DNA from: an uncultured virus (IMG/VR IMGVR_UViG_3300030107_003727)
Taxonomy: Duplodnaviria; Heunggongvirae; Uroviricota; Caudoviricetes
DNA length: 20,000 nt
Reading direction: 5' to 3' (one strand)
IMG/VR virus record: IMGVR_UViG_3300030107_003727
Positions 1 to 20,000 of this stretch are shown here, piece after piece; position 1 is the first letter of the stretch, and every line of letters begins with the position of its first letter. Made by a program: the position numbers and the translations under genes. Below the pieces are notes generated by a model that did no database searches, was not told the origin of the DNA, and saw only the letters and a list, made by a program, of their open reading frames with translations.

Positions 1-2
1 TA

Positions 3-5954: not shown

Positions 5955-6022
5955 ACCTGAGGTTGCTTCAGCCGGGGGGGTTGTCGCCTCGCCGCACACG
6001 CGGACCTTATTCGAGGCAAACA

Positions 6023-6050
6023 CCAAGGGGGAGGGTGGATTCCCCCTTGG
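6023..6050 (-). terminator. Probable intrinsic terminator between convergent genes
   Basis: 10 bp perfect stem CCAAGGGGGA/TCCCCCTTGG with an 8 nt loop, 13 nt after the stop of the minus-strand SSB-like gene. Followed by TGTTT on the minus strand. Confidence 0.7.
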
Positions 6051-6062
6051 CGCGGAGGTGTG

Positions 6063-6440
6063 TCAGAAGGGAACTTCGTCTTGGTTTACAGGTTGTTGCG
6101 GAGCAACAGGCTGCTGAGGGGGAGATGTTTGCGCAGCCCCCTGTGGAAGACGACAACGGACACATGGCATCACCCGTCCTTGGAATGATGCTTGGTCTTG
6201 ATACAGTTCAATCTGACGACCTGCCCACTGCTCAGTTTGAGGACCGAGGGCACTGGACAGGGTGTTTGCGTTTGTCTTGTTCAAGACAAACTTTTGTTGA
6301 GATTCATTGAAAGAGATTGCGGGTTTTTGAGTTCCATCCTGCATCTGTTCGATTGACACGTCAGCAATCGTCAGAGTCCGTGGCTGCGCCACATCCGCCG
6401 CCTTGAAATATGTTCCGGGGAAAGCATCGTTGATATTCAT
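6063..6440 (-). CDS. Putative phage single-stranded DNA-binding/annealing protein
   Basis: N-terminal FPGTYFKAADV, beta-rich core, Q/P-rich linker and an acidic C-terminal tail ending DEVPF as in SSBs. Co-transcribed with the RecE-like gene. Confidence 0.65.
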   Translation of the reverse strand: MNINDAFPGTYFKAADVAQPRTLTIADVSIEQMQDGTQKPAISFNESQQKFVLNKTNANTLSSALGPQTEQWAGRQIELYQDQASFQGRVMPCVRCRLPQGAAQTSPPQQPVAPQQPVNQDEVPF

Positions 6441-6452
6441 GTTGAAGTTCCT

Positions 6453-7277
6453 TCAAATAGTTAGAGGTTCGTGTTCAATAGCCCAGTCAGGAAGAGATAG
6501 GGTTTCCGGCGAGAGACTGTATGCCGGATAGTTCCCAGATGCTACACACTCTGTCCATTGTGTCAACACCCTTTTGTAATTTTTTCTCCCCTGTTCTACG
6601 GCTTTCCCATCCAGCAGGTACACACCCACTGCAAACGGGGCTGTTTTCTCAACTGCGATTATACAAAATCCGCAGTTTTTTTTCTCGCCGTGTTCCATAC
6701 CGTCCTTGTAGAACGCGGCTTGTGTGTGATATCCAAACTTTGCAATGCTGTTTGCAAACTTTGGCCCCGCATCTTGCGTGGTCTTGAGGTCAACAATCAT
6801 GGGCTTTTGCCTGCCTTTGCCTGCAAGCAAAAGGTCGATACGGCCTTTGCAGTCAACACCCGTGTCAGGGTCACGCCAAGTAATCGTTTGCTCCACTTGC
6901 CCTTTACGCTTGAACAGGGGGGCAGCGGCAGGGTGACTTCGGACAGAATCGCGCATTTTCATAGCGATATCCCAGTCTTCCTGTTTGCAAATCACACGGT
7001 CAGAGTTGACTTGTATGAAATCCTCATACTCAAGTTTGCCAGCCTTGGTGCGCCGGTCAATTTTGGGCATGATTGCGTACATATCCCTGACATATTCTTC
7101 TTCAAGAACCACCGCATGCACAAGTGAACCGAGAGAAAGCGCATCACTTTCGTATGAAATCTCACCGTCAAGGTAAGCCTTCATGTGTGCCATACTTCTC
7201 AGCCCATGCTTAATTGCACTTTGATTCATCAAAGGCAAAGCCCTGTATTGCTCTTCATCAATGTTAGATAAGCCCAT
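6453..7277 (-). CDS. recE: RecE-like exodeoxyribonuclease VIII (PD-(D/E)xK, DUF3799-like)
   Basis: Motifs LGSLVHAVVLE, CKGRIDLL, IVDLKTT, YHTQAAFY, IAVEKTAPF. Start moved to ATG 7277, which has GGAGG (7286-7290) 8 nt upstream. Confidence 0.88.
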   Translation of the reverse strand: MGLSNIDEEQYRALPLMNQSAIKHGLRSMAHMKAYLDGEISYESDALSLGSLVHAVVLEEEYVRDMYAIMPKIDRRTKAGKLEYEDFIQVNSDRVICKQEDWDIAMKMRDSVRSHPAAAPLFKRKGQVEQTITWRDPDTGVDCKGRIDLLLAGKGRQKPMIVDLKTTQDAGPKFANSIAKFGYHTQAAFYKDGMEHGEKKNCGFCIIAVEKTAPFAVGVYLLDGKAVEQGRKNYKRVLTQWTECVASGNYPAYSLSPETLSLPDWAIEHEPLTI

Positions 7278-7308
7278 ATTTATGTCCTCCAAACTGGGGT
7301 TGAAAGGG

Positions 7309-7338
7309 GTTGTACCAAAACTGGCGAGGCCGTGTCAA
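7309..7338 (-). promoter_or_regulatory. Leftward sigma70-type promoter
   Basis: Minus strand TTGACA (7338-7333), 18 nt spacer, TACAAC (7314-7309) preceded by TGG (extended -10). Points into the recE-like gene. Confidence 0.55.
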
Positions 7339-7361
7339 GCAAAAAAATCAGATTCTTTTGG

Positions 7362-7390
7362 TTGACATGGTAAGATAGATATTGTACACT
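7362..7390 (+). promoter_or_regulatory. Rightward sigma70-type promoter of the replication operon
   Basis: TTGACA (7362-7367), 17 nt spacer, TACACT (7385-7390), with an A/T-rich tract upstream. Confidence 0.8.
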
Positions 7391-7396
7391 GTCTGC

Positions 7397-7666
7397 ATGG
7401 ATGCAACTGACATGCAAAACAAGATCCGAGAGATCCGGGCACTGCTTGCAAACACTGCTCTCCTCTCGACCAAACTGGACACACCAGTTCTGGACAAGAA
7501 GGCGGTGATGGTACACATTCAAGCGGTGGACAATCATCTCAAACTTGCATCTCCAGATGTCATGTGCGGGTACTGCTCAGGGCAGGGTTGCCGCGCATGC
7601 AAAGAGACTGGTTGGATGAGCAAAGAATTCGCTGCAATGCAGCCCAAGGAGTTCCATGCTTCGTGA
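7397..7666 (+). CDS. Small hypothetical protein with a CxxC-x4-CxxC zinc-finger-like motif
   Basis: CGYCSGQGCRACKETG. Start set at ATG 7397 because the annotated TTG 7382 lies within the promoter; ATG 7412 is an alternative. Overlaps the helicase start. Confidence 0.7.
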   Translation: MDATDMQNKIREIRALLANTALLSTKLDTPVLDKKAVMVHIQAVDNHLKLASPDVMCGYCSGQGCRACKETGWMSKEFAAMQPKEFHAS

Positions 7667-9413
7667 TTACCAGCACCAAGCAATCGCTGCTGCATCCGAT
7701 TCTTTGTCAAAGAATCGGTCGTGCTTGCTGGTTGCTGCAACTGGCGTGGGCAAGACCACCATCTTCTGCGAAATCATTCGCAGAGCCTTGAGTAAAGGCA
7801 AGCGTGTTTGTGTGATGGCGCACCGTGACGAGTTGATTCGCCAAGCCGCCAGCCGTATTGAGCAAATTGCTGGTGTTCAACCAGAAATTGAGAAGGCTGG
7901 CCAGTGGGCCAAAGGTGATGTCCCAGTCTTTGTTACTTCGGTGCAAACCATGAATGCAAAATGGATTTTAGACCGAAGATTTCAGCGTTTTCAGCCTGAT
8001 GACTGGGATTTGCTCATCATTGACGAGGCGCATCACGCGCTTGCTCAGTCGTATCGAAACGTCATAGACCACTTTCAAAAAAACCCCAAACACAAAGTGA
8101 TTGGGGTAACTGCTACCCCTGACCGTGGGGACCAACTTGGACTTGGGGAAATTTTTGACGACTGCCCGTTTCAGTACGAAATTGGTGACGCTGTTTGTGA
8201 TGGGTGGCTTGTGCCGATCCGCCAGCAGTACGTCACCGTGGGCAGCCTTGACTACTCTGAGATCAAGACAAGGCTAGGCGACCTTTGCGGCGGAGACTTG
8301 GCCGAGGTGCTGGAGCAAGAAAAAAACATACATGGCATGGTTTCGCCAACCCTTGAATTACTCAAGGGCAAAAGTGCAATCGTGTTTTGTGCAACTGTTC
8401 GGCAGGCAGAAATGGCCGCCGAAGTATTCAATCGACATAAGGAGGGCATTGCAGCATGTGTCCATGGAAAGACCAGCCCGGAGGATCGGGCGGACATTCT
8501 TGCGCGATTTGCGGATGGATCACTTCAATTTGTGACGAATGTTGGAGTGCTTACCGAGGGCTTCGACGCGCCCCGGTGCGACGCAGTCGTGATGATGACA
8601 GCGACCAAGGTTCGGGCGAAGTACGTCCAATGCGTGGGTCGTGCGACGAGGCCGATCACCCCACCTTTGCAGACGATGACGAAGGAGCAGCGGGTGGAGG
8701 CCATCGGGTCGAGTGAGAAACCCTTTTGCACAGTCATCGACTTCAAGGGTAACTCTGGTCGCCACAAACTGATAGGCATGGTGGACGTACTTGCCGGCAA
8801 CAGGCCAGAAGGTGTTGTTGACCGTGCAAAACGAATCATCGCCGACGAGGGTGTGGCCGACCCAGAGGATGCGCTCCGCATGGCGGAGATTCGGGAGGAA
8901 GAGGAGAAGCAAAGGGAAGAGGCCCGTCAGCGCGAGATTTTGCGGAAAGCAAAAGTCAAACTCAAAGCCGATTACCACGCCAGAGAGGTAGACCCTTTTG
9001 CACGATTTGACATGACCCCCGTACATCCGTCTGATCCCAAGGAGCAGCCATCTGAAAAGCAGCAGGCCATGTTGATGAACAACGGGGTAGATCCCACAGG
9101 ATTGACGCGCAAACAGGCCGGAAGATTGGTTGGAGATATTATGATGCGGAGAAAACTTGGCCGTCCAAGTCTAAAGCAAGAAGCAATCCTTGACCGATAT
9201 AACCTTACAGCACGATCCTCATTCGAGGCTAAAGCACTGATCGACGAGATCGCTGCTGCTGGATGGAAACTACCTAATGCACCTTCTGGACGAGAACCTG
9301 AAACTTCTGTTCTTTCTGGCTCGGATGCAAAAGAGCAAAGGCCACTTCCGCAGGTGGACGGTGGACGAACTGGTGAGCGAGACATACCTGATCGCCCGCC
9401 CGGCGGTGGATAA
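7656..9413 (+). CDS. Superfamily 2 DEAH-type helicase (ResIII/SSL2-like)
   Basis: Q motif LRDYQ, Walker A ATGVGKT, DEAHH, TATP, LTEGFDAP, QCVGRATR. The C-terminal end is uncertain (see findings). Confidence 0.93.
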   Translation: MLRDYQHQAIAAASDSLSKNRSCLLVAATGVGKTTIFCEIIRRALSKGKRVCVMAHRDELIRQAASRIEQIAGVQPEIEKAGQWAKGDVPVFVTSVQTMNAKWILDRRFQRFQPDDWDLLIIDEAHHALAQSYRNVIDHFQKNPKHKVIGVTATPDRGDQLGLGEIFDDCPFQYEIGDAVCDGWLVPIRQQYVTVGSLDYSEIKTRLGDLCGGDLAEVLEQEKNIHGMVSPTLELLKGKSAIVFCATVRQAEMAAEVFNRHKEGIAACVHGKTSPEDRADILARFADGSLQFVTNVGVLTEGFDAPRCDAVVMMTATKVRAKYVQCVGRATRPITPPLQTMTKEQRVEAIGSSEKPFCTVIDFKGNSGRHKLIGMVDVLAGNRPEGVVDRAKRIIADEGVADPEDALRMAEIREEEEKQREEARQREILRKAKVKLKADYHAREVDPFARFDMTPVHPSDPKEQPSEKQQAMLMNNGVDPTGLTRKQAGRLVGDIMMRRKLGRPSLKQEAILDRYNLTARSSFEAKALIDEIAAAGWKLPNAPSGREPETSVLSGSDAKEQRPLPQVDGGRTGERDIPDRPPGGG

Positions 9414-9576
9414 AAGATTTGACCCCAACAAGGGGTCGCTGTCGCGGTTCCTGACGCGAATTATTATTCAGGATGTCAACTACAAGTACCGCCGTTTGCA
9501 TGGTGCAGTAAGGCGGAGAATTGATGGAAAGAACGTATGGGTTCAACTGGAAAGACCGAACGAAATAGATTTCTGA
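9277..9576 (+). CDS. Small protein resembling sigma70 region 2
   Basis: DELVSETYLIARPAVDKRFDPNKGSLSRFLTRII resembles the sigma region 2.2-2.3 pattern DLxQEGxxxLxxAVxKFDPxKGxxFxTYA. Too short to contain region 4. Confidence 0.55.
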   Translation: MHLLDENLKLLFFLARMQKSKGHFRRWTVDELVSETYLIARPAVDKRFDPNKGSLSRFLTRIIIQDVNYKYRRLHGAVRRRIDGKNVWVQLERPNEIDF

Positions 9577-9806
9577 CCACAGGCGAGATCGCAAACCTTT
9601 GCGGGATGTCGCAGCAAACCATCATCCGACAGATTGACAAGGGATACCTTGAGGGTTTCCGCATTCCCGGATCAACACACCGGCGTGTAAGCCTGACCAA
9701 CCTGCGCAACTGGATGGAGCAAACTGGAATAGATCAAGGAGATTTGGATGACTTCATCGGGGTGGAACCGGGTCAACAGAACCAACAAGTGTCCGATTTG
9801 CGGTAA
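9537..9806 (+). CDS. Excisionase/MerR-like helix-turn-helix (HTH_17-like) DNA-binding protein
   Basis: FLTTGEIANLCGMSQQTIIRQIDKGYLEGFRIPGSTHRRV. Confidence 0.85.
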   Translation: MGSTGKTERNRFLTTGEIANLCGMSQQTIIRQIDKGYLEGFRIPGSTHRRVSLTNLRNWMEQTGIDQGDLDDFIGVEPGQQNQQVSDLR

Positions 9807-10569
9807 GCCTGATTGGTGTTTGATATCTGAGGATGGGTTGGCGGTAATTTGCCCGCGCACACCATCTGACAAACGTGTGGGTGATGCAGGGTGGCTACAC
9901 AAGCCTTCTGAGTTATTGCATACCCCTGCCGTGAGTGTTGCGCCACTCGAAGTGCCAGATTTTGCACCACCAGAGTGGGCAGAAAGGGTTGAGATGTGTC
10001 ACAAAGAAATGCAGGCGTACCAATGGGATTTTCTGAAAGCCAACACGGGTTGCAGTGTTGAGTCATTGCATCGCATAAGAGCAGGATGGTCGCAGGCTAA
10101 GGGCGCGTACACGTTCCCCATGCGTAACGGCAAAGGGCAAGTGTGTGGCGTGCGATTGCGCTACCCCAACGGAAAAAAATCTTCTGTCAAAGGTTCTCGC
10201 AACGGGTTGTTTTTTGACCCGGACACTGAGATGCCAAGGGCGGGCAGGGTGTATGTGTGCGAAGGCCCAACCGACACAGCAGCCATGCTGTCCATAGGTC
10301 TTATGGCTGTTGGCCGTCCGTCATGCAACACCGGCAGCAAATTTCTTTGTGATCTGATCCCGTTTGCCAACGAGTGCGTGGTTGTGGCTGACAAGGACAG
10401 GCCCGGTAGAGATGGTGCAAAACTTGTTGCAACACAACTAGCAAAAGCCAAACGATCCGCTAAGGTTATTGAGCCGAAAGACGGCGGTGATGCAAATGAA
10501 TGGGTCCAGCGCGGAGCCACCAAAGCAGTCGTCGAAGTTATTGCAGAGCAAGCAAAGGAGATCCGATGA
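9748..10569 (+). CDS. Primase-like protein (N-terminal Zn finger plus TOPRIM)
   Basis: CPICGKPDWC...VICPR zinc-binding region, TOPRIM motifs VYVCEGPTDTAA and VVADKD, and C-terminal DANEW. Confidence 0.82.
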   Translation: MTSSGWNRVNRTNKCPICGKPDWCLISEDGLAVICPRTPSDKRVGDAGWLHKPSELLHTPAVSVAPLEVPDFAPPEWAERVEMCHKEMQAYQWDFLKANTGCSVESLHRIRAGWSQAKGAYTFPMRNGKGQVCGVRLRYPNGKKSSVKGSRNGLFFDPDTEMPRAGRVYVCEGPTDTAAMLSIGLMAVGRPSCNTGSKFLCDLIPFANECVVVADKDRPGRDGAKLVATQLAKAKRSAKVIEPKDGGDANEWVQRGATKAVVEVIAEQAKEIR

Positions 10570-10742
10570 AGTCCGCAGCCGAAAAGTTGCACCAAACCCT
10601 CAAGCAAACAACCACAAATTTTGCGGTTGAATTTGACATGACTGTCTACGAGGTGCTTGGTGTTATCAAATTGCTTTTGCTTGAGTTGTGGTACGAGCAT
10701 GACCAAGAGGGTGCTGGAGAGGAATTTGACGACGATGAGTAG
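10566..10742 (+). CDS. Hypothetical protein (58 aa, acidic tail)
   Basis: ATGA overlap with the primase stop (MKSAAEKLHQ...). Its stop overlaps the next start. Confidence 0.7.
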   Translation: MKSAAEKLHQTLKQTTTNFAVEFDMTVYEVLGVIKLLLLELWYEHDQEGAGEEFDDDE

Positions 10743-11169
10743 GCCCATGTACGAGCAAGCCATGGACTTGGCGCGCGAACACGAGATGATGTCACATGTA
10801 AGTGCAAAGTGGGGCGTGCAGTATTACAAACTGCCAATCTCATATCGCATGGATTTCATTCTGATGAGTGCTGAAAAGCCAAAGGCTTTTGCTGAGTGCA
10901 AGCACCGCAACTTCAAGTGGGGCCAATACCCCGATGTGATGATTAGTCTGAGCAAAGTGCAGGCTGCGGATTCGTTGCTGACTACCACCGGCCTAAAGAC
11001 AATGTTGATAGTGCGCGCCATTGACACCATCTATTACGTCTGCTTGAACGAGTGCGTGGAAAATTACAGTTGGTTGCAGTTCGGCGGGCGTACCGTGAAC
11101 ACTCGTGACGACGGTGATGTTGAACCTGTTTACCACATACCGATTGAAAGATTCGGCTGCATCGCATAG
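10735..11169 (+). CDS. Putative PD-(D/E)xK endonuclease
   Basis: YRMDFILM...AFAECKHR (D...ExK). Start at ATG 10735 (MSRPMYE) is coupled to the previous stop. Confidence 0.65.
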   Translation: MSRPMYEQAMDLAREHEMMSHVSAKWGVQYYKLPISYRMDFILMSAEKPKAFAECKHRNFKWGQYPDVMISLSKVQAADSLLTTTGLKTMLIVRAIDTIYYVCLNECVENYSWLQFGGRTVNTRDDGDVEPVYHIPIERFGCIA

Positions 11170-11181
11170 CATCGTATAGGT

Positions 11182-11562
11182 ATGGGTAAGTCTCAGCGCG
11201 ACAAAGGCAAGCGGGGAGAACGAGAGGTCGTTGGGATTTTGCGTGGGCTAGGTTTTCCGTCCGCAAGGCGCGCGCGGCAAAGCGACGGCGCAATAGATCC
11301 CGACGTAGCAGGATGCCCAGAGTTATGGGTAGAAGTGAAGCGGCGCAAAAGTATTGCGGCCATGCGCTTCATGGATCAAGCGGTGCAAGATGCAAAAGAC
11401 GGAACAATCCCCGTAGTCTTCATGCGAGAAGACCACGGGGATTGGGTCGTAGCGTTCAGGGTTGAAGATTTTCCCCGCGCCGTTCGGGAGTTCTGGTACA
11501 GATCCTCCGAACCGACGACGGATCCCACGCCTTCCCACGCGGAGCAAAACCATTCCGGTTGA
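11182..11562 (+). CDS. Hjc-like Holliday junction resolvase (PD-(D/E)xK)
   Basis: MGKSQRDKGKRGEREV, DPDV and WVEVKRR motifs. Confidence 0.8.
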   Translation: MGKSQRDKGKRGEREVVGILRGLGFPSARRARQSDGAIDPDVAGCPELWVEVKRRKSIAAMRFMDQAVQDAKDGTIPVVFMREDHGDWVVAFRVEDFPRAVREFWYRSSEPTTDPTPSHAEQNHSG

Positions 11563-12151
11563 GCAAGTCGCAGATGGATCGCCAGCCGTATCCGGCCTCG
11601 CGCCATTCAAGCATCTTGTCGATTGCCTGCTGCTCTGATTGATTGAGTTGAAGACGAGAAGGGTCTGCATCGCATAGCATCCAACCGTAAGGTGGATGCC
11701 GCGACATGCGCCTGCCTTCGGACTGGTAGCGTCGCATAGCAACGCTTGTCCGCACCTGCACAAGCCTGCGCTCGTACTCGGCTGCTGCGGATAACACTTG
11801 GCGAATGAGCCTGCCTTCTGCCGTATCATCTTGCACACCTTCTCTTGCCGCTTGGATCTTGAACCCATGCTTCTCAGCATGACGGTGCAAAGCCTCGGCC
11901 AGATACAGGTCACGCGCAAGACGGTCCATTTTCCAGACCAGCATCACGCCACCCTTTGGCGTTTGCTCCATAGCATCCCACAAGCCGGGCCGTTCAGGAT
12001 CAGCACCACTCTTGTGTTCGTCACCATGCTTGCCAAGTACGCGCCAGCCGTTTGCTTTTGCAAACTGCTCACACTCTTGGTACTGGGTTTCGATTGACCC
12101 GCTCTCCCCCGGTCTGGGGGAGTAGCGGGCGTAAATGACACACTCAATCAT
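11456..12151 (-). CDS. Serine recombinase (resolvase catalytic domain plus short recombinase-type DNA-binding domain), 231 aa
   Basis: VIYARYS (catalytic Ser), SG...RPGL, VWKMDRLAR, AEYER, PPYGW, ICDLLNRNG...W...SVRRI. Start at ATG 12151 overlaps the sirtuin stop. Confidence 0.9.
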   Translation of the reverse strand: MIECVIYARYSPRPGESGSIETQYQECEQFAKANGWRVLGKHGDEHKSGADPERPGLWDAMEQTPKGGVMLVWKMDRLARDLYLAEALHRHAEKHGFKIQAAREGVQDDTAEGRLIRQVLSAAAEYERRLVQVRTSVAMRRYQSEGRRMSRHPPYGWMLCDADPSRLQLNQSEQQAIDKMLEWREAGYGWRSICDLLNRNGFAPRGKAWDPSSVRRICTRTPERRGENLQP

Positions 12152-12800
12152 CGGGGAACAACAGCGGCATGACTTCCTCAGCCGTCCCTTGTATGTGCAA
12201 ACCTTTTGCCTTCTCAACCTTGACTGGGTTGATGAAGATGGCCGAGTCGTCCTTGGCAATGTCTTGCCATAGTTCAGCAGCGGGCTGCACCTCAAGCGAT
12301 GTGCCGATTGCAACAAGCAAGTCGGCATTCTTCATAAGATCGTGTGCCTCCATCAGTTCCGTGATTGGCAAACACTCGCCGAACAACACTACGTCTGGCC
12401 GCATGATGTGGAGTTCAGGATCGTACCTGTCCTTCATCACCTCGCCGTGCAAATGGATGGCTGGCTTGCCAGCACGTTCTGACAGGTCGTCAACATTTTG
12501 CGTAATGTGGTGTTTGATTCTGTCACACTTTGCAATAGCAAAGTGTGCGGCGTTGGGTTCCTTGCGCTGTAGTTGCTCACGCCATGTGGCGTACATTTTG
12601 ACGAAGTCATCGGTGTGGTTGACCAGACCGTGGCGGCTGCCATAAATCTTGGGGTCATGGGTTTGCCAAAGCGGGTCGTTTGCATCGCGGTATGTAGGCA
12701 CACCGCTCGCCTTGCTCAGTCCCGAGCCGGAGAACACAACAATGTTCTCTGCCTCGATAATCATTTCGTTAGCCGCAGACATATCTAGCAATGATGTCAT
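12144..12800 (-). CDS. cobB: Sir2/CobB-family NAD-dependent protein deacylase lacking the Cys4 Zn module
   Basis: SGSGLSKASGVPTYRD, PNAAH, ITQNVDDL, HLHG, RPDVVLFGE, IGTSLEVQPAA, INP. Confidence 0.9.
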   Translation of the reverse strand: MTSLLDMSAANEMIIEAENIVVFSGSGLSKASGVPTYRDANDPLWQTHDPKIYGSRHGLVNHTDDFVKMYATWREQLQRKEPNAAHFAIAKCDRIKHHITQNVDDLSERAGKPAIHLHGEVMKDRYDPELHIMRPDVVLFGECLPITELMEAHDLMKNADLLVAIGTSLEVQPAAELWQDIAKDDSAIFINPVKVEKAKGLHIQGTAEEVMPLLFPDD

Positions 12801-12801
12801 G

Positions 12802-13215
12802 TCAGTTTTCCTTTTGATAGAAAAAGAATTCGATTTCAGGGTCAGGACGTAGCGTCGGTGGGATTTGCTCCAACACTTCGTCTGGAATGTCAGTGTCGTA
12901 CCCGTCGATGTCGGTCGGGCCAGTGAGCAAAATGTTGCCGATCAGTGGTGCGTTGTAGCCAATGTGGCCAGACAACCAGATGCTCCAGATGTTGACAACA
13001 GAGTTGTCCTTGAGCAAACCCTCGTCGTCAACGTATACGCTCAGGCCAGACTTACCAGCCGGTGCATTTTGGTTGACCGGAACGACAGTGAACACGTCAC
13101 ACCCAAGCAAATCGTAGATGTCTTGGATGTTGTTCTTGCGAATTGACACGACTTGTCGTGTCCCATTGGTGTGCAAAAGCACAGCCTTGGTGGTGTCATC
13201 ATTCTGTTTCGTCAT
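12802..13215 (-). CDS. DUF3846-like phage protein
   Basis: VYVDDEGLLK...N...PLIGNILLTG pattern. Start set at ATG 13215 (MTKQND); 13230 is possible. Confidence 0.7.
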   Translation of the reverse strand: MTKQNDDTTKAVLLHTNGTRQVVSIRKNNIQDIYDLLGCDVFTVVPVNQNAPAGKSGLSVYVDDEGLLKDNSVVNIWSIWLSGHIGYNAPLIGNILLTGPTDIDGYDTDIPDEVLEQIPPTLRPDPEIEFFFYQKEN

Positions 13216-13543
13216 CGTATAGATCCCCATAGTTGACGTTCCATGCTTTGCAAAGTCGGCGCACCATGCGCTCGATTCGCTCAAGCGATTCTGTCTTTTC
13301 TTGTTTCTTCTCTTGCATAGCAAGAGTCGTCCGGCAAGCAGGTCTGGCACGGTATTCAATGCCTCGTCGTTTGCATGCCCTCCGGGTGGTGCTTGGACTT
13401 ACGTCCAAGTTCAACGCATCGCCACATTGTTTCGCAAGAGTCACATGGTGTGGGCGCTCCTCAAGGATTCGTTTGCGCTGCGATTCAATCCACTCGTTGA
13501 TGCGATCTAAGTCGTCATCGGTTTGTTTGCGTCGGGTACTCAT
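13199..13543 (-). CDS. Hypothetical basic protein, possible HTH
   Basis: LAKQCGDALNLDVSPSTTRRACKRRGI resembles a winged HTH. Its start is coupled via TAATG to an upstream small ORF. Confidence 0.65.
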   Translation of the reverse strand: MSTRRKQTDDDLDRINEWIESQRKRILEERPHHVTLAKQCGDALNLDVSPSTTRRACKRRGIEYRARPACRTTLAMQEKKQEKTESLERIERMVRRLCKAWNVNYGDLYDDETE

Positions 13544-13662
13544 TAGCGGTCCTCGTGTCTTTCCACCGTGTCACCGTACACACGGTCGTATCCGTTGATA
13601 TCAAAGATCGTGAGTACGGCTTTCGCCGTACCCACGATCACCTTGAACACAGTCTGTATCAC
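13543..13662 (-). CDS. 39 aa micro-ORF (MIQTVFKVIVGTAKAVLTIFDINGYDRVYGDTVERHEDR), not in the ORF track
   Basis: Fills the gap exactly, with a GTGA overlap at its start and a TAATG overlap at its end. Confidence 0.6.
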   Translation of the reverse strand: MIQTVFKVIVGTAKAVLTIFDINGYDRVYGDTVERHEDR

Positions 13663-14147
13663 TCGGTGGCCTCCGAGTCGTCATCCCCAGACCATGTGTC
13701 CGCCACACTGTTGTGGAGTTCGTGCAGTGCGATTACACGTTTGCGGTACTCATGCTGATTCCGCTCTCCCAGTGAGACAAGTATCTTTTCGCACAAGTCA
13801 ACCATCTGTTGATTCTGCGCTGCAAACTTGTTTGCACCGTTGGCAATTTTGTCGTAGTCAAGTTGTTCACCCGCCGCCGCCATCCGTGCAAAATCTGCAA
13901 GTTGCTCGGCCAGTTCCCCGAGGTTCTTGAACCTTGAGCCGTACGCCTTGATGATGGACGAGAGCATAAGACCACGCTGGTCGTTGCCCTCTTTTAGTTT
14001 GCAAGCAAACTTGAACATCATCTCTGTCTCTGCGTCTGCCGGTATTGGCAGGTGTCCAAACAATGTCATTGTGCCAATGACATCTTTCCAATCGCCCGGA
14101 TCACCGGACGATTCCAATTCGGGGAATGGTGTGTTTTCCATGCTCAT
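13659..14147 (-). CDS. Hypothetical protein
   Basis: 162 aa ORF with an ATGA overlap with the upstream gene and GAGG upstream. Confidence 0.75.
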   Translation of the reverse strand: MSMENTPFPELESSGDPGDWKDVIGTMTLFGHLPIPADAETEMMFKFACKLKEGNDQRGLMLSSIIKAYGSRFKNLGELAEQLADFARMAAAGEQLDYDKIANGANKFAAQNQQMVDLCEKILVSLGERNQHEYRKRVIALHELHNSVADTWSGDDDSEATE

Positions 14148-14620
14148 GCTTGCACCTCTTCGGTTTGTGGGTTTGCGGCGTTGGGAGTCTCTTCGTCGGA
14201 GACGGGAGGCAGCGAATCGACAAGGTCGTCGAGCCTGCCGTACAGGACGTTCAGTCCTTCACAAAGTGATTGGATATCGTCTCGAAGCACTCGTGCTTCT
14301 TGCCAGTCAACGTCAATGCTTTCGCAGGTATTCTCGGCGTTGTCAATGTAGTGGTGTGCATCACTGATGGATGCGTCACCAATCTCGCGGATCTCGGATG
14401 CCAAGTCCTTGACTTCAGAGTCTACGCGGTCCATGTTGTCCGCCACAGTGTCGGCATCGCTGTCGAGGGACTCGACTTCACGAAGCAGGTCGCCAAGGTA
14501 GTCACGGATAGCAAGGACACGACCCGAAATTCCCGGGGCCATGTCACCGGTAGGGATGCCAGCCTCCTTGGAGGCAGCGGCGAGAATGGTGTTGAGTTGG
14601 GTGATGAGTTCAGTGTTCAT
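14144..14620 (-). CDS. Hypothetical acidic coiled-coil protein
   Basis: Heptad-like acidic helix. Start at ATG 14620 (MNTELITQ), just downstream of hairpin A. Confidence 0.75.
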   Translation of the reverse strand: MNTELITQLNTILAAASKEAGIPTGDMAPGISGRVLAIRDYLGDLLREVESLDSDADTVADNMDRVDSEVKDLASEIREIGDASISDAHHYIDNAENTCESIDVDWQEARVLRDDIQSLCEGLNVLYGRLDDLVDSLPPVSDEETPNAANPQTEEVQA

Positions 14621-14633
14621 AGTGGTTTCCAAT

Positions 14634-14687
14634 CTCCCCCGAATCTCTGGGGGTTCATTTCATTACCCCCCCAGATATTCAGGGGAG
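14634..14687. repeat. Intergenic hairpin repeat, copy A (divergent centre)
   Basis: CTCCCC-C-GAAT-C-TCTGGGGG...CCCCCAGA-T-ATTC-A-GGGGAG. Arms are closely similar to copy E, but the centre is TTCATTTCATTAC. Confidence 0.75.
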
Positions 14688-14714
14688 TGTAAGGTGTGGT
14701 TCAACCGTCGTCAA

Positions 14715-15644
14715 TCAGGAACGAACAAGTCCCTTGTTCACAATGGACAAGTAGGCTTCGGTGAGGTCTTGCATGTCCTCGACCGGGGTGAGCATCAGGT
14801 CGTAGCGATCACCGTGGATCTTTTCGTACGCCGCTGAACGCTTGGCTGGTGTGCAAAGCCCTTGCCCCGAGTCCATCTTGAACTTGGCTAAGCCTCGTGG
14901 CATTGGTTGACACCATGACTCGAAGCAAAGCATTCGATAGAACGCTGGGTGACCAAGTGCCATCAACGCTTGCGGATCGACTCGTCGATCAGCAGGCTTG
15001 ACGCAGATGCCTTGTCCAACGGATCGTGTTCCGGAGCCGGTGCAAAATTGGCCACCGTCACCGGTCTGTCCGACCACTGCCTCGATGCGAACGGGGTAGC
15101 CATCGTTCTGTAGTTGCTCCGCAAGAGCAGTGGCTCGGCCCCAACACTCGGCAAACTTTTTACCGTCCGTGGTGCAAACAGCAGAGATGCCAACGCCAAG
15201 CGTCACCAGTGGGTGGAAGGCTTGGTTCTGTTTGCGCCGCCAGTGGTACTCCGTGCCGCTGAGGTAGCGGTCGATCATCGGTGACCCACCACCTGCCGCA
15301 ACGGAGTTGCGTTTCCGTTTTGCATACGTCTTGGTGCGGTTGCCGGTCTTGCCGAGCAAGACCTTAGCGGCCTCCTGCCGCGCCTTGTCGTACCAGTCAC
15401 GAGTGTTTGCATCGGAGCAAACGCCGCATTCAATGTCCGACATGGCATCGGCAAACCGGACACCTCCGGTGTGGAAGCGGTCGCTGAAGTTGGGGTTGCC
15501 CTTCAGGGCATCGGCCCAAACACCGTGGTTGTTGTCTGTGTCAATCGAGAGCGTTCGCTCCTTAGTGACCTTTTGCACGAAGTCATCGACAGAGTCGAAG
15601 TATTCGAGCATGGTGTTTTCGTCGTGCTTTGCTGTGAATTGCAT
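14715..15644 (-). CDS. Putative vWA-like partner of the AAA ATPase (degenerate MIDAS)
   Basis: Directly downstream of a MoxR/CobS-like ATPase. VTLGVGISAVC strand, helix, PVRIEAV strand and GHPAFYRML fit a vWA-like fold, but there is no intact DxSxS. Confidence 0.5.
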   Translation of the reverse strand: MQFTAKHDENTMLEYFDSVDDFVQKVTKERTLSIDTDNNHGVWADALKGNPNFSDRFHTGGVRFADAMSDIECGVCSDANTRDWYDKARQEAAKVLLGKTGNRTKTYAKRKRNSVAAGGGSPMIDRYLSGTEYHWRRKQNQAFHPLVTLGVGISAVCTTDGKKFAECWGRATALAEQLQNDGYPVRIEAVVGQTGDGGQFCTGSGTRSVGQGICVKPADRRVDPQALMALGHPAFYRMLCFESWCQPMPRGLAKFKMDSGQGLCTPAKRSAAYEKIHGDRYDLMLTPVEDMQDLTEAYLSIVNKGLVRS

Positions 15645-15656
15645 GGTGCAAACTCC
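15642..15656 (-). promoter_or_regulatory. Start-associated motif GGAGTTTGCACCATG (copy 1)
   Basis: Exact 15-mer comprising the SD and start codon. Identical copies at 18188-18202 and 18996-19010. Confidence 0.85.
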
Positions 15657-15660
15657 TTAT

Positions 15661-15704
15661 CCCCTCACCTACTGGGGTCGTAGACTCCCCCAGTAGGAGA
15701 GGGG
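15661..15704. repeat. Intergenic hairpin repeat, copy B
   Basis: CCCCTC-A-CCTACTGGGG-TCGTAGACTC-CCCCAGTAGG-A-GAGGGG. Confidence 0.9.
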
Positions 15705-15726
15705 TTGGGTTAGTGGTTGGGTTGGA

Positions 15727-17004
15727 TCACCATGATCCAACCATTGACACGGCCATGTCCAAGTCCGTCTTGGAGAGGTGCTTCCACACCTTCTTGATCT
15801 CCGTAGGAGACCAAAGCCGACACATTCGTCCGACCGTCTCACCGATGGTGAGGCCAGCGGCTCGCCACTTCTCCCATCCCAGACATGTCCGAGTCTGGAT
15901 GGTGCGGGCTGACGAGACCCCTTCGTCTTTGATATTCTTCCTTGCTTTCGCAAGGAGGTCGTACTCGGTGGCAAACGTGCCAAGCAAGACACGCTCCATG
16001 TCCGGGTCGTAGTCAAAGTGAACCATGACACCGAGTTGCTCCCACCGAGCGACGAAGTCGGTTGACTGCCGCTCGGTGTCGTAGACACCTTCGCTGCCGC
16101 CGGGTCCATCCATCGCTGAGTTGCCAGTACCGATGAAGACGAAGTCTTCGTGACGGTGAACCTTGCGGTCCCCAACGTTTACGTTGTCGTCGAAGTTGAC
16201 GAATTGGTTTAGACATGCGGTGCAACCGCTGTCTGCCTTGTCCATCTCGTCAAGGACGAGAACGACTGGCTTGTCGTATGCCCCAGTCACGACCCCTTCC
16301 TTGAAGGTTCCGTCGAGGGTGGGGTTCCCGAGATACTTCTCGGGATAGTCGTTCTTGTTGCAGCCATGGTAAATGTCCTCTCGACCAAGGATTGCAGCGA
16401 CTTGCTTCGCAGCAAACGACTTGCCAGTCCCAGAGGGACCAGCGGCGTAGCACCGACCGAACATCAGAACGCAGGTCAGCATCTCTTCGAGTTGCTTGTG
16501 TGGGTTCTTGATCGTGCCATTGGCAACGGCTTGCTCGATCATCTCCTTTGCCCTAGCAAAGGGGTTGTCGGGGGATTGCTTCAGCAATTCCTGATTGGGT
16601 GGAGGAGGTGGCGTTGGAGCAGGCTGAGGCTGATCCTCTGCCCCAAGGGGCATGTCAAGCGGCTCGCCGCCGAACGATGAGACCAAACGTTCCAAGAACG
16701 TTGGGTCGCCGCCGACCATCTTGAGCCGGTAATGCCGACGTAAGTCGGAAGGATCCCATCCCCGATCCTTGCACTCTTCTTGCAGAAGAGCAGGCCAGTC
16801 ACCAGCAAACCGGTACGAAAGTACCGCTTTGACAGCGTCACCGCCGAACTGCTGAAGCCACATTGATGCACCTTCGTTGCCGTGCTGAAGCAAGAACCTT
16901 GCTTCTGGCATCCGAAGGTAGTTGTAAAGCGAGGACTTCGTCCCCGAACGATTGCAAGCCACCTTGATGCGGTCCCTTGCTTCGGTCAATTCTCGTCGGC
17001 TCAT
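15727..17004 (-). CDS. MoxR/CobS/CbbQ-like AAA+ ATPase with N-terminal extension
   Basis: Walker A GPSGTGKS, Walker B VLVLDEMD, HEDFVFIGTGN sensor and a Pro-rich linker. Start at ATG 17004 has AAGGAG 6 nt upstream. Confidence 0.85.
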   Translation of the reverse strand: MSRRELTEARDRIKVACNRSGTKSSLYNYLRMPEARFLLQHGNEGASMWLQQFGGDAVKAVLSYRFAGDWPALLQEECKDRGWDPSDLRRHYRLKMVGGDPTFLERLVSSFGGEPLDMPLGAEDQPQPAPTPPPPPNQELLKQSPDNPFARAKEMIEQAVANGTIKNPHKQLEEMLTCVLMFGRCYAAGPSGTGKSFAAKQVAAILGREDIYHGCNKNDYPEKYLGNPTLDGTFKEGVVTGAYDKPVVLVLDEMDKADSGCTACLNQFVNFDDNVNVGDRKVHRHEDFVFIGTGNSAMDGPGGSEGVYDTERQSTDFVARWEQLGVMVHFDYDPDMERVLLGTFATEYDLLAKARKNIKDEGVSSARTIQTRTCLGWEKWRAAGLTIGETVGRMCRLWSPTEIKKVWKHLSKTDLDMAVSMVGSW

Positions 17005-17077
17005 GGCCATCTCCTTGCTGCAAAGCAGCGCCAGTTTTACGGCAGCCAACGACCATCGCTGACTTGCCAGTTGCTTT

Positions 17078-17122
17078 CCCCTTTCTCTCAGGGGTCGTAA
17101 GACTCCCCCTGAGATAAAGGGG
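17078..17122. repeat. Intergenic hairpin repeat, copy C
   Basis: CCCCTTT-C-TCTCAGGGG-TCGTAAGACTC-CCCCTGAGA-T-AAAGGGG. Confidence 0.9.
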
Positions 17123-17123
17123 T

Positions 17124-17298
17124 ATTCGGTTCCTTGTGTCCCGCCGTTTGGGGCAGGGACTATTCATTCCCATGACCTGCCTACACTCGCAGCCGCATCC
17201 GGCTGATCCCTTGAGGTCCGGTGCATTCGCAGGCTTGTTCGTGCCATGTCTGGCGAGACTTGATCTCACCCCACACGGCAGGACACAAGAAACCGAAT
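17124..17298 (-). ncRNA. Candidate structured ncRNA (~175 nt rod-like fold)
   Basis: 30 nt terminal arms (17124-17153 and 17269-17298) are complementary at 27/30 positions. Two of the three deviations are G-U pairs on the minus strand. Further internal stems are present and there is no credible ORF. Confidence 0.55.
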
Positions 17299-17315
17299 TG
17301 TCGCCTCGCGGCAAA

Positions 17316-17348
17316 CCCACCACGCAAGGCAGAGCCTCACGCGGTGGG
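17316..17348 (-). terminator. Terminator-like or processing hairpin
   Basis: Minus strand CCCACCGCGTGAGGC-TCT-GCCTTGCGTGGTGGG (15 bp, 3 G-U) followed by TTT, 13 nt after the stop at 17361. Confidence 0.55.
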
Positions 17349-17360
17349 GAGTTTGCACCG

Positions 17361-18011
17361 TCACTGAATGATGGTGTATGGCGTAGCCACTACGCCGGGA
17401 TGATTGTCGAAGTGAAACTTCCCTTCGCGCCACTCGCCACGCTCACAGAAATCCATCTCCACTTCGTGGGTTGGATTGGAGGCGTAGCCGATTTGGTACT
17501 TGCCTTGAGGATCAAGGCAGTTGCCCTCGCCGTCTTCGACGCGCCATCCAACGCACCAATCGAAGAACGAAGAGTCACCGATGCTATCCACCTCGAAGAG
17601 GCGAATATCACCGTAGTTGCCCCGGACATCTCCACCTCGGTGGAGATTGCAAGCGACAACCAAGTTGTCGCAGTACAGCCAATCCCCGGAGTCAACTCCA
17701 CCGTTGGACGACCAATGGTCGTCAATCATGCTTTGGGGAACCCAAAGGGAGAACAGGATTTGCTCCGCAAAGTTGTTCTCGTGGTTGTATGTGTTGTCGG
17801 CTCCAGAGCCGACTCGGACGTACGGCTCGCCTTTGGTCTTTGCAAGCAAAGACGCGACCTCTGCTTCGTCAGAAGCAAAGATGAACCTGTCGCTGTCGTT
17901 GTCTGCCTCGATCTCTCGGTCTGTGACCGAGGTGAGCCACGACTCAGAATCAATGTAAACCTCGGAGAGGTAAGTGTCACCTTCGGTGGTGATGATTTTT
18001 GCTTCGGACAT
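17361..18011 (-). CDS. Acidic hypothetical phage protein (216 aa)
   Basis: Start at ATG 18011 (MSEAKII) is preceded by the motif variant AAGGGTTTGCACC. Contains conserved-looking DNTYNHENN and LHRGGDVRGNY segments. Confidence 0.8.
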   Translation of the reverse strand: MSEAKIITTEGDTYLSEVYIDSESWLTSVTDREIEADNDSDRFIFASDEAEVASLLAKTKGEPYVRVGSGADNTYNHENNFAEQILFSLWVPQSMIDDHWSSNGGVDSGDWLYCDNLVVACNLHRGGDVRGNYGDIRLFEVDSIGDSSFFDWCVGWRVEDGEGNCLDPQGKYQIGYASNPTHEVEMDFCERGEWREGKFHFDNHPGVVATPYTIIQ

Positions 18012-18028
18012 GGTGCAAACCCTTCTGT

Positions 18029-18190
18029 TCAGCAAGGCTGAACGCTGATGATCTCTTCGGTGTCGGTCATCGGCAGATTCTCTGCCGCGACGAACTTGGC
18101 ATCCATGGTGCAATCCGACTGGATTGCCACGGTCATGCTGTGGGTGTGGCCGGTGTCTCGACACCGGACGACGATCTCAAACTCAAACAT
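18029..18190 (-). CDS. 53 aa hypothetical protein (MFEFEIVVRCRDTGHTHSMTVAIQ...), not in the ORF track
   Basis: Begins at an exact GGAGTTTGCACCATG copy (18188-18202) and ends just before the next gene's RBS. Confidence 0.75.
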   Translation of the reverse strand: MFEFEIVVRCRDTGHTHSMTVAIQSDCTMDAKFVAAENLPMTDTEEIISVQPC

Positions 18191-18202
18191 GGTGCAAACT
18201 CC
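18188..18202 (-). promoter_or_regulatory. Start-associated motif GGAGTTTGCACCATG (copy 2)
   Basis: Exact 15-mer. Confidence 0.85.
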
Positions 18203-18572
18203 GTTTGTTGAATAAACAGCCTAACTTGGCAAACTTGCCAAGTCAAGCGAATACCGCTGAGGGGAATTGAACCCCACCAAAGGCTCTAGCCTTTGCCATG
18301 AGCGGCGACCGATCTTCGATCCATGCCAAGCCGTGGCTGGTGCCTACCGCAACGAAGTTGCCATACGCGGCTCCATTTGCTGGTACAGCAAATGTGCAAT
18401 TCACCCTGCTACCGTCGTGCTGCCTCACCTAGTGATTACCAATCACTAGGGACATGGACTCTTTCGCTCGTCTTCGGCTTCGCCGTTTGTCGGCAAGCCT
18501 CGACGCCGTAGCATAGAGGTGTCCGGATCGCTCCAGATCGAATCGGTTTGTCGGGGCCAGTTTGGTTGGTGG

Positions 18573-18624
18573 CCCCCTCCTGAGTAGAGGAGTCGTAAGA
18601 CTTCCTCCTCTACTCAGGAGGGGG
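18573..18624. repeat. Intergenic hairpin repeat, copy D
   Basis: 20 bp perfect inverted repeat CCCCCTCCTGAGTAGAGGAG around TCGTAAGACTTC. Confidence 0.92.
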
Positions 18625-18656
18625 ACAACACCCTTTGGGTGTTGAACCCTTCGTGG

Positions 18657-18998
18657 TCAAGACCTTCTCTGAAGGTCTTGTATGTCCTTTTTGAGGTCAT
18701 CAATGGCCTCAAAAACATGGTCGAGGGCAGAGACTGAGGTCATGGCCAAATCAAATGCTTCCGCATTTGCTTTGTCCAAGATTTCGCATGAGTCTGCAAG
18801 ACTCATCATGTTTTGCTCGTCTTGGTGGTCGGGGCAAGCCGATTTTTCGGCTTGGTCGAGGATGTCCTCGGCTTTAGCCGAGGCATCCGAGGCCCGAATG
18901 ACCTGATTTTCGAGGTCAGTGAGACGTACGATCATTTGCTCTAGCAAATGTTCTGCGGTGAATTTTGGTGGTTGAACTGCTTCGGATGGCTTTGCCAT
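18657..18998 (-). CDS. Hypothetical helical/coiled-coil protein
   Basis: 113 aa ORF starting at an exact start-associated motif. Confidence 0.8.
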   Translation of the reverse strand: MAKPSEAVQPPKFTAEHLLEQMIVRLTDLENQVIRASDASAKAEDILDQAEKSACPDHQDEQNMMSLADSCEILDKANAEAFDLAMTSVSALDHVFEAIDDLKKDIQDLQRRS

Positions 18999-19010
18999 GG
19001 TGCAAACTCC
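18996..19010 (-). promoter_or_regulatory. Start-associated motif GGAGTTTGCACCATG (copy 3)
   Basis: Exact 15-mer. Confidence 0.85.
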
Positions 19011-19064
19011 TGCTGCTTCAGCAGCAAAATGAACTCGACCTCGGCAGCAGCAACTTTGCTGCTA

Positions 19065-19113
19065 CCTCCCATTTCTCTGGGGGTCGTAAGACTCCCCCCA
19101 GATAAATGGGAGG
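19065..19113. repeat. Intergenic hairpin repeat, copy E
   Basis: CCTCCCATTT-C-TCTGGGGG-TCGTAAGACTC-CCCCCAGA-T-AAATGGGAGG. Confidence 0.9.
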
Positions 19114-19489
19114 GTGAACCCCTTTAGGGGTTCAAGGTTGGCTGGGCTAACCTTGCTCCGATCCGACAGTTAGTTAGTCCACGCTGAGGGTTTGCAGTGC
19201 AAACCCCGTGCCGACTCATGGGGCTTCCCATGGGGTTTAGATACGATCTAAACCTGTGCGAAGCCTTGCGTACGCGCGCGCGAGCATTTTGCTCTGCAAA
19301 ATGGCCAACCGAACACTTGGCCAACGCTTTTTCAGCCCCTGTAAGGGGCTGGCCATCGGTTTTTGCTGCGGTTGTCTTGATCTGGCAAAGCCAGATCCAC
19401 ACCCCTACCCTCACTACATATTACATATCCCACGCAAATACACGGTGGATTTTGGAGTGTTAAGTTAGGTAAGACCCGATGATGGGGTT

Positions 19490-19909
19490 ATGGATTGCCC
19501 TGTATGCAAGAAGCGTGTGGAGCAGGGTTTCTCAGACTGTGAGCAGCAGAAAGAAAGGTTGCAGGCCAAGAACCAGCGTTTGGTTTTGGCTTTGACAGTT
19601 TTGGGAACCTTGGCCGGTAAAGAGGTTGTTGACTATGCGGTTGGATTGTCAAAAACCGTCGAGCAGGTCATCTCGCAAGCAGAAACTCAGCCCAGAGGCT
19701 CAACGGGCTTTGCTTCGAGCGTACGGCCTTCAAGAGAAGGAAAAGAAATACTGTTGGTTCAGAGCAGCAATGCCCGATTGTTTTCTAATGTGCCACCACT
19801 TACGCCAAATCTCCAATTTAACACTTCGGTCGATCCAATCATTCTTCCGGACCCTGCTCCGATGATGCTAATGGGGTTGCTGCTTACCCCGTCCAGAAAA
19901 AGGAAGTAG
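19490..19909 (+). CDS. Hypothetical membrane-associated protein with a PEP-CTERM-like tail
   Basis: N-terminal CPVC, coiled segment, hydrophobic LVLALTVLGTLAG, and C-terminus LPDPAPMMLMGLLLTPSRKRK. Confidence 0.65.
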   Translation: MDCPVCKKRVEQGFSDCEQQKERLQAKNQRLVLALTVLGTLAGKEVVDYAVGLSKTVEQVISQAETQPRGSTGFASSVRPSREGKEILLVQSSNARLFSNVPPLTPNLQFNTSVDPIILPDPAPMMLMGLLLTPSRKRK

Positions 19910-19914
19910 TTCTA

Positions 19915-20000
19915 ATGCTGACCCAACTGTTGTTGTTGCTGGTTGCCCAAAGCGGCCCCCCTGCTGATCCTGATTCGGTAGCCATGTGGGTTGACGATTT
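19915..20000 (+). CDS. Start of a 3'-truncated protein with a signal-peptide-like N-terminus
   Basis: MLTQLLLLLVAQSGPPADPDSVAMWVDD..., open to the window end and starting just after the previous stop. Confidence 0.5.
   Translation, partial: MLTQLLLLLVAQSGPPADPDSVAMWVDD

Follow-up and report, generated by a model that had tools for sequence, protein, structure and literature searches.

Sequence comparison and computed folding make it fairly probable that a 12-nt word just behind the stop codon of an early phage gene is an anti-RBS seed in a 3′ tail, which would damp the early genes that carry the matching start tag, in cis and perhaps in trans. The word lies in the window, by which we mean the whole 20,000-nt stretch of DNA that was analysed and which is part of an uncultured marine tailed phage, and its complementarity spans the Shine-Dalgarno (SD) sequence plus the spacer of four early genes. 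The features concerned, all on the minus strand, are as follows.

15645..15656, minus: exact copy of the start tag, before the DUF7192 gene 14715-15644; lies downstream of the seed
17078..17122, minus: long hairpin, one of five between early-gene blocks (four with a GTC(T)TACGAC loop)
17132..17299, minus: multibranched element of 168 nt, closed by a 30-bp stem, behind the hairpin
17316..17348, minus: hairpin of 15 bp, three of the pairs being G-U; only three U come after it
17348..17359, minus: putative anti-tag seed, 1 nt past the stop codon; the leftward transcript reads GGUGCAAACUCC
17361..18011, minus: 216-aa gene without a Pfam family; its tail contains the seed
18012..18023, minus: variant start tag AGGGTTTGCACC of gene 17361-18011
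18191..18202, minus: exact copy of the start tag, before the 53-aa gene 18029-18190; favoured cis partner in the folds
18999..19010, minus: exact copy of the start tag, before the 113-aa gene 18657-18998

The inverted start tag and its surroundings

The motif GGAGTTTGCACC occurs exactly on the plus strand at 17348-17359 and, as the original prediction had it, is not followed there by ATG; the next letters are GTC. It is also close behind the stop codon (17361-17363) of the leftward gene 17361-18011, although the gap is a single base (17360) and not 2 nt, and its adjacency to the hairpin 17316-17348, described before as abutting, is in fact an overlap of one base, 17348. Exact copies of the tag are found on the minus strand at 15645-15656, 18191-18202 and 18999-19010, each immediately 5′ of an ATG, and a fourth copy with two mismatches occupies the same position at 18012-18023. 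The perfect 12-nt complementarity claimed previously applies to three tags, whereas the tag of gene 17361-18011 gives 11 pairs, one G-U; the idea of one switch for the whole gene set lacks support, the tag being limited to four genes.

Matches to the motif with at most two mismatches number 13, compared with a mean of 2.31 in 200 shuffles, and Markov models of orders 1-5 predict 0.002-0.03 exact copies per 20-kb strand by chance. Under a look-anywhere null, which accepts any of 12 start regions and any place in 7.5 kb, a complement of at least 12 nt was reached in 6/200 shuffles. Given these results, a chance origin is, from the window alone, unlikely yet possible. The GGTG of the 12-mer can pair locally with 17373-17376 and its GCAAAC with 17311-17316; the idea that the 12-mer is the mere foot of a local hairpin was dropped, the probability of that pairing being at most 0.3.

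On the plus strand of positions 1-12000, GCAAA is found 74 times and TTTGC 49 times, where about 12 would be expected at even base use. Also, a generic anti-SD word, CACACCTCC, is located at 6054-6062 (minus strand) directly past the stop of gene 6063-6440 and ahead of a hairpin, and is kept in the relative G001. A palindrome at 19190-19208 contains a tag-like word and its 10-nt complement, with a changed loop in the relative.

This relative, IMGVR_UViG_3300030099_002989 (G001, 44.6 kb), carries terminase, head and virion genes, and its early arm is about 90% identical to that of the window. The closest matches among cultured phages are remote (terminase 37% over 46%, ATPase 27%), and the host is probably a planctomycete, since a Phycisphaeraceae MAG encodes a terminase homologue at 50%. 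Between 12 and 19.5 kb, the leftward arm encodes small genes, an AAA ATPase, DUF7192, DUF3846, Sir2 and a serine recombinase, spaced by strongly folded gaps (z -11.0, -9.3 and -6.5). Fold strength favours the transcribed strand (z -11.0 vs -7.2), to which the G-U pairs also point. An Rfam scan of 12000-20000 returned 10 weak matches, none at gathering score and none in 17050-17360; no tRNA or tmRNA was found, and promoter-like sites in the scanned region numbered 3 vs 3.8 expected.

The hairpin 17316-17348 has a computed energy of -27.4 kcal/mol on the minus strand and -19.0 on the plus strand and is probably a 3′ end or a stabilising stem. Its G+C-rich stem on the transcribed strand is a terminator feature, but it has no U tract (3 T in 8 nt) and the terminator scan did not call it. 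With only three U after the hairpin, compared with 5-7 in the distant seed-bearing relatives described below, it is a putative transcription end. A pattern search for this hairpin matched the close relative only. The 168-nt element behind it (17132-17299) is absent from the close relatives L079, L134 and L135, and the run contigs contain both forms; it is not needed for the seed. Part of one of its arms was seen in a different context in a 185-nt contig, and a pattern search for the element gave 51 matches, all of at most 20 nt.

Four long hairpins (19065-19113, 18564-18633, 17078-17122 and 15661-15704) have differing stems and a common GAGTC(T)TACGAC loop and, together with a variant at 14634-14687, may mark unit boundaries. 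The same loop occurs on other stems in four further phage lineages; in two Nitrospira MAGs the hairpin adjoins Rep-like or excisionase and integrase genes (labels assigned by eye), and in a Crenothrix MAG it precedes a T run. The loop resembles the pMV158 nick sequence TACTACG/AC as given in the available part of its source (PMC1851628). No Rep was detected among 27 proteins scanned, and three phages having the TACGAC hairpin showed no 9-nt start tag. In L087, another phage with the TACGAC hairpin, the early region contains a hammerhead ribozyme of Type II and a short match to tmRNA (2267-2343 and 4151-4233). Finally, a tRNA-like piece with a T-arm and an acceptor-like stem lies at 18242-18312 (minus strand), called neither by ARAGORN nor by Rfam; the loop of its T-arm is TTCAATT here, whereas the relative has TTCGATT. 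A hairpin between two TATTC repeats at 18210-18248 is missing in the relative.

Start tags and their complements in related phages

In each of L079, L134 and L135 the seed shows 0/12 differences, while third codon positions of gene 17361-18011 differ at 24/216, 23/216 and 29/205, respectively. The neighbouring gap 17005-17131 is equally invariant (0, 0 and 2 of 127 differences), and L079 and L134 are near copies of each other. Since the entire gap is conserved too, the close relatives say little on the seed in particular, and its conservation there is compatible with function without being a test of it. A frameshifted protein, P0004, runs through the seed with an unchanged residue sequence. 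The whole relative G001 has two exact forward copies of the tag and one reverse copy; its counterpart of the tag at 18999-19010 reads GGAGTTTGTACC (C to T), a change that retains G-U pairing with the seed.

Farther afield, the tag was missing from all 43 distant homologues of the 216-aa protein in viruses, and inspection by eye revealed no mirror of their own start past the stop. Among 78 viral stretches with the tag and an ATG, a reverse copy within 3 kb was present in the close relative only, and two unrelated phages with two similar tags each had no reverse copy at one mismatch or less. In the unrelated phages L019 and L028, two adjacent genes each start with GGAGTT(T/C)GCACC ATG.

To extend the comparison we turned to the terminase alignment, in which the best 80 of at least 587 relatives were considered and 18 whole records and 6 loci were taken, two further handles and short loci being omitted. 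The window, G001 and three other phages brought the set to 29 sequences, which were searched automatically for a 9-nt start tag; one was found in 15/29 (the window and 14 family members). The distant members share about 50% terminase identity with the window's clade and carry different tags. When long complements were sought, the tags of five records being set by hand, G012, G014 and G015 showed the complement of their own tag just past a stop codon and before a hairpin with a U run, the arrangement seen in the window.

A first formal zone rule passed 2/15 and missed the window, where the fold absorbed the seed, and was replaced. The corrected rule demands 9 nt with at most one G-U pair, no more than 45 nt from the stop, and a hairpin of -15 or better directly after. 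It is passed by 6/15 (the window, G011, G012, G014, G015 and G027, hence 5/14 besides the window), compared with 5/184 for foreign dissimilar tags, 3/26 for similar tags and 21/814 for untagged SD regions. The nominal binomial p of 2e-4 (4/12 at 0.027) has to be read with the thresholds in mind, which were partly tuned after the G012, G014 and G015 matches were known; among the nine tagged records outside the hand-set-tag search, G027 alone passes. The sisters G011 and G012 share 88% terminase identity. Three seeds differ from their tag by a G-U pair, and permitting one non-G-U mismatch instead adds no site.

The seeds of G014 and G015 (terminase 88%) are CCCCTTTCAG for the tag CTGAAAGGGG and TCCTTTCAA for TTGAAAGGA, respectively; they stand behind other, unrelated genes, and within 33 kb the G015 seed is the sole reverse copy of its tag, which occurs six times. 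The window's seed is at a non-homologous place with respect to the distant relatives, so that the layout is common and the locus is not. Co-variation of tag and anti-tag in relatives, which the original prediction had put forward as a check, is seen in part of the terminase family, while 9/14 tagged records, G017 included, fail the corrected rule; several of the failing records are fragments, and some automatic tags are doubtful. Many tags in the early arms of G011 and G012 are preceded by an inverted repeat, GTTGGTTC..GAACCAAC, similar in this to the extended start-associated sequences of cluster K.

In G011, G012 and G027 the seed follows a homologous 130-aa gene (43-63% identity, no Pfam family). 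Behind this gene, G011 and G012 have GCTATCTCT for the tag GGAGATAGC, G027 has TTTTCCAGT for ACTGGAGAA, and G017 has TGTTCTCCT for AGGAGAACA, a 9-mer that occurs once on its strand (45.8 kb). The gene was found in 11 records, of which 10 were compared (G024 was dropped, being identical to G016 there). Own starts paired over at least 9 nt amounted to 3/37 in G011, 5/30 in G012, 4/33 in G027, 2/39 in G017, 1/39 in G016 and 1/36 in G020, and to none in G013, G014, G015 and G028; between unlike records, 0-2 starts per cell were paired. At the sequence level, each of three tag types thus has a matching seed behind the 130-aa gene: that of G011/G012, that of G027 and, weakly, that of G017.

Predicted pairing and alternative explanations

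The computed seed-tag duplexes range from -20 to -25 kcal/mol for all four tags, with opening costs of 3.6-10.6 for the seed and 3.2-5.1 for the tags. In 6/6 folded transcripts the seed was paired with a tag at a summed probability of about 0.95-1.0, the exact tag being preferred, a result that speaks to feasibility only, since any perfect 12-bp helix does well in equilibrium folds, which take no account of ribosomes. The anti-RBS half of the original prediction thus gains from favourable computed pairing and from the co-variation seen in part of the terminase family. According to the available text of a study in B. subtilis, a 12-mer directed against the SD plus 6 nt and placed more than 500 nt downstream cut protein by 44% (PMC12697547).

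The 12-mer would accordingly be an antisense seed in the 3′ tail of the early-gene message. Once transcribed, the tail could pair with the start tags and lead to less ribosome loading and a shorter message life, with the genes 18029-18190 and 17361-18011, 0.65-0.85 kb upstream on its own transcript, as the first targets. If the hairpin-protected tail were to outlive the message, it could act on other tagged messages as well. The private tag would then serve as an address, and the tail would exert delayed negative feedback on the early genes. We regard the cis action as more secure than the trans action, which is about an even bet. A broader proposal, which we put forward tentatively and with less than even confidence, is a family-wide, protein-free early shut-off, in which each lineage would place a private tag over the ribosome sites of a selected group of genes and keep a single complement of it in a 3′ tail protected by a hairpin. 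This tail would accumulate as a small RNA that represses the whole group in trans; tag and seed would co-evolve, and the seed could move between genes.

The motif could instead be a relic or a product of chance, namely an inverted piece of a start cassette at a palindrome- and indel-rich module junction, kept together with the whole conserved gap. The region does gain and lose hairpin modules, TTTGC/GCAAA words are frequent genome-wide, pieces of the 12-mer are able to pair locally, and the look-anywhere shuffles did reach 12 nt; we nevertheless hold such an origin to be unlikely, given that distant relatives show the same layout with their own tag, far above the rates for foreign tags, and that tag and seed co-vary behind one gene. 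We give even less credence to the tag being a DNA site for a phage protein in either orientation, with the reverse copy as one more site before the terminator. The palindrome 19190-19208, with its head-to-head tag-like half sites kept in the relative, would suit a protein site, and protein binding is left open in the available text on start-associated sequences (PMC3203893). However, the reverse copies are single and always lie between stop and hairpin on the coding strand, and three of them deviate from the tag by a G-U-compatible change.

That the reverse copy bounds an invertible segment, as had also been proposed, with the phage serine recombinase as the cutting enzyme, is very improbable. 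The same arm does encode such a recombinase (Resolvase and Recombinase domains), and its G001 homologue has matches in the PHROG families for integrase and DNA invertase. The sites used by invertases measure about 26 bp, and an inverted pair would have homology or dyad symmetry well beyond 12 bp. Here the flanks are identical at only 0-8/20 positions on either side, so that homology ends at the 12-mer, and the motif is self-complementary at only 6/12 positions. L079, L134 and L135 are collinear with the window in the same orientation, and the contigs of four DNA runs, which drop rare variants, contain no strand-changing joint (the tables of runs X8 and X10 were identical, and X1 is perhaps the source). 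No variant fell in 17300-17400 among the 40 of 248 variant places listed for the four runs.

Comparison with known systems

The available portions of the cited papers describe several systems with which the anti-RBS seed can be compared. In icaR of Staphylococcus aureus, a 3′-UTR anti-SD motif pairs with the SD region of its own message and blocks initiation (PMC3868564). Pairing of this type lowers translation and yields a substrate of RNase III. As in icaR, an anti-SD motif past the stop is able to pair with an SD of the same message, here by computation only; unlike icaR, which concerns one bacterial gene and a 7-nt motif, the seed covers SD and spacer over 12 nt and the tag is found at four phage genes.

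The cluster K mycobacteriophages carry 11-19 start-associated sequences (SAS) with a 13-bp consensus, an asymmetric SD-containing word that stands just before the start codon of non-structural genes; four K1 phages have, in addition, one reverse copy (PMC3203893). The window likewise has a repeated asymmetric SD-core word near the ATG (four copies), in one orientation and with a single reverse copy away from gene starts; the 12-mer is a different word with fewer copies in another host, outside the 13-bp consensus with 11-19 copies. In Anaya, a separate structured gap of 385 nt (z -6.0), located behind a promoter-like site, carries the reverse SAS copy in a hairpin loop, whereas the window's seed stands between stop and hairpin. 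Among 10 cluster K phages picked from 182 matches, the reverse copy is present with at most two mismatches in four, reduced to a pyrimidine-rich loop in three and absent in three. In Unicorn, Ekdilam and Scarlett the SAS is unchanged while the reverse copy drifts or is deleted, hence without co-variation, and the cluster K loop looks like a loose, dispensable anti-SD. The conserved non-coding stretch itself (L159:29682-30066 in Anaya, and L160-L168), behind a TTGACG-N17-TAGACT-like site and matched in 182 records, is probably an unannotated small RNA; the three stretches scanned had no Rfam match.

The C4 and CI RNAs pair with targets among the phage's own messages. Both the C4 RNA of P1/P7 and the CI RNA of P4 are RNase P substrates (PMC5499578), and a phage RNA cut from a longer transcript to act on its own messages is an idea shared with the proposed seed, although there is no Rfam match here and no cloverleaf around the seed. 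In T4-type phages, PeSL cassettes, which are repeated stem-loops with promoters and terminators, drive shuffling (PMC2839356); the window resembles them in its variable early region of gene modules separated by repeated stem-loops and differs, as far as the abstract of that paper goes, in having an antisense copy and promoter-like sites no more frequent than expected.

Repeated start-associated words in phages, the reverse copy included, were described in 2011 without a function, as given in the available text (PMC3203893), and for the layout of stop, seed and hairpin in phages no description was found in the titles and abstract openings searched, which mostly exclude subscription journals. 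If the family-wide shut-off were true, start-associated sequences would gain a function. Tag/anti-tag co-variation across a phage family makes these words a testable rule, and the 12-nt tag, the seed and the hairpin are usable in a reporter independent of the phage host. By analogy, the seed would work like the icaR 3′-UTR pairing and possibly, in trans, like C4 and CI, while being a member of neither family.
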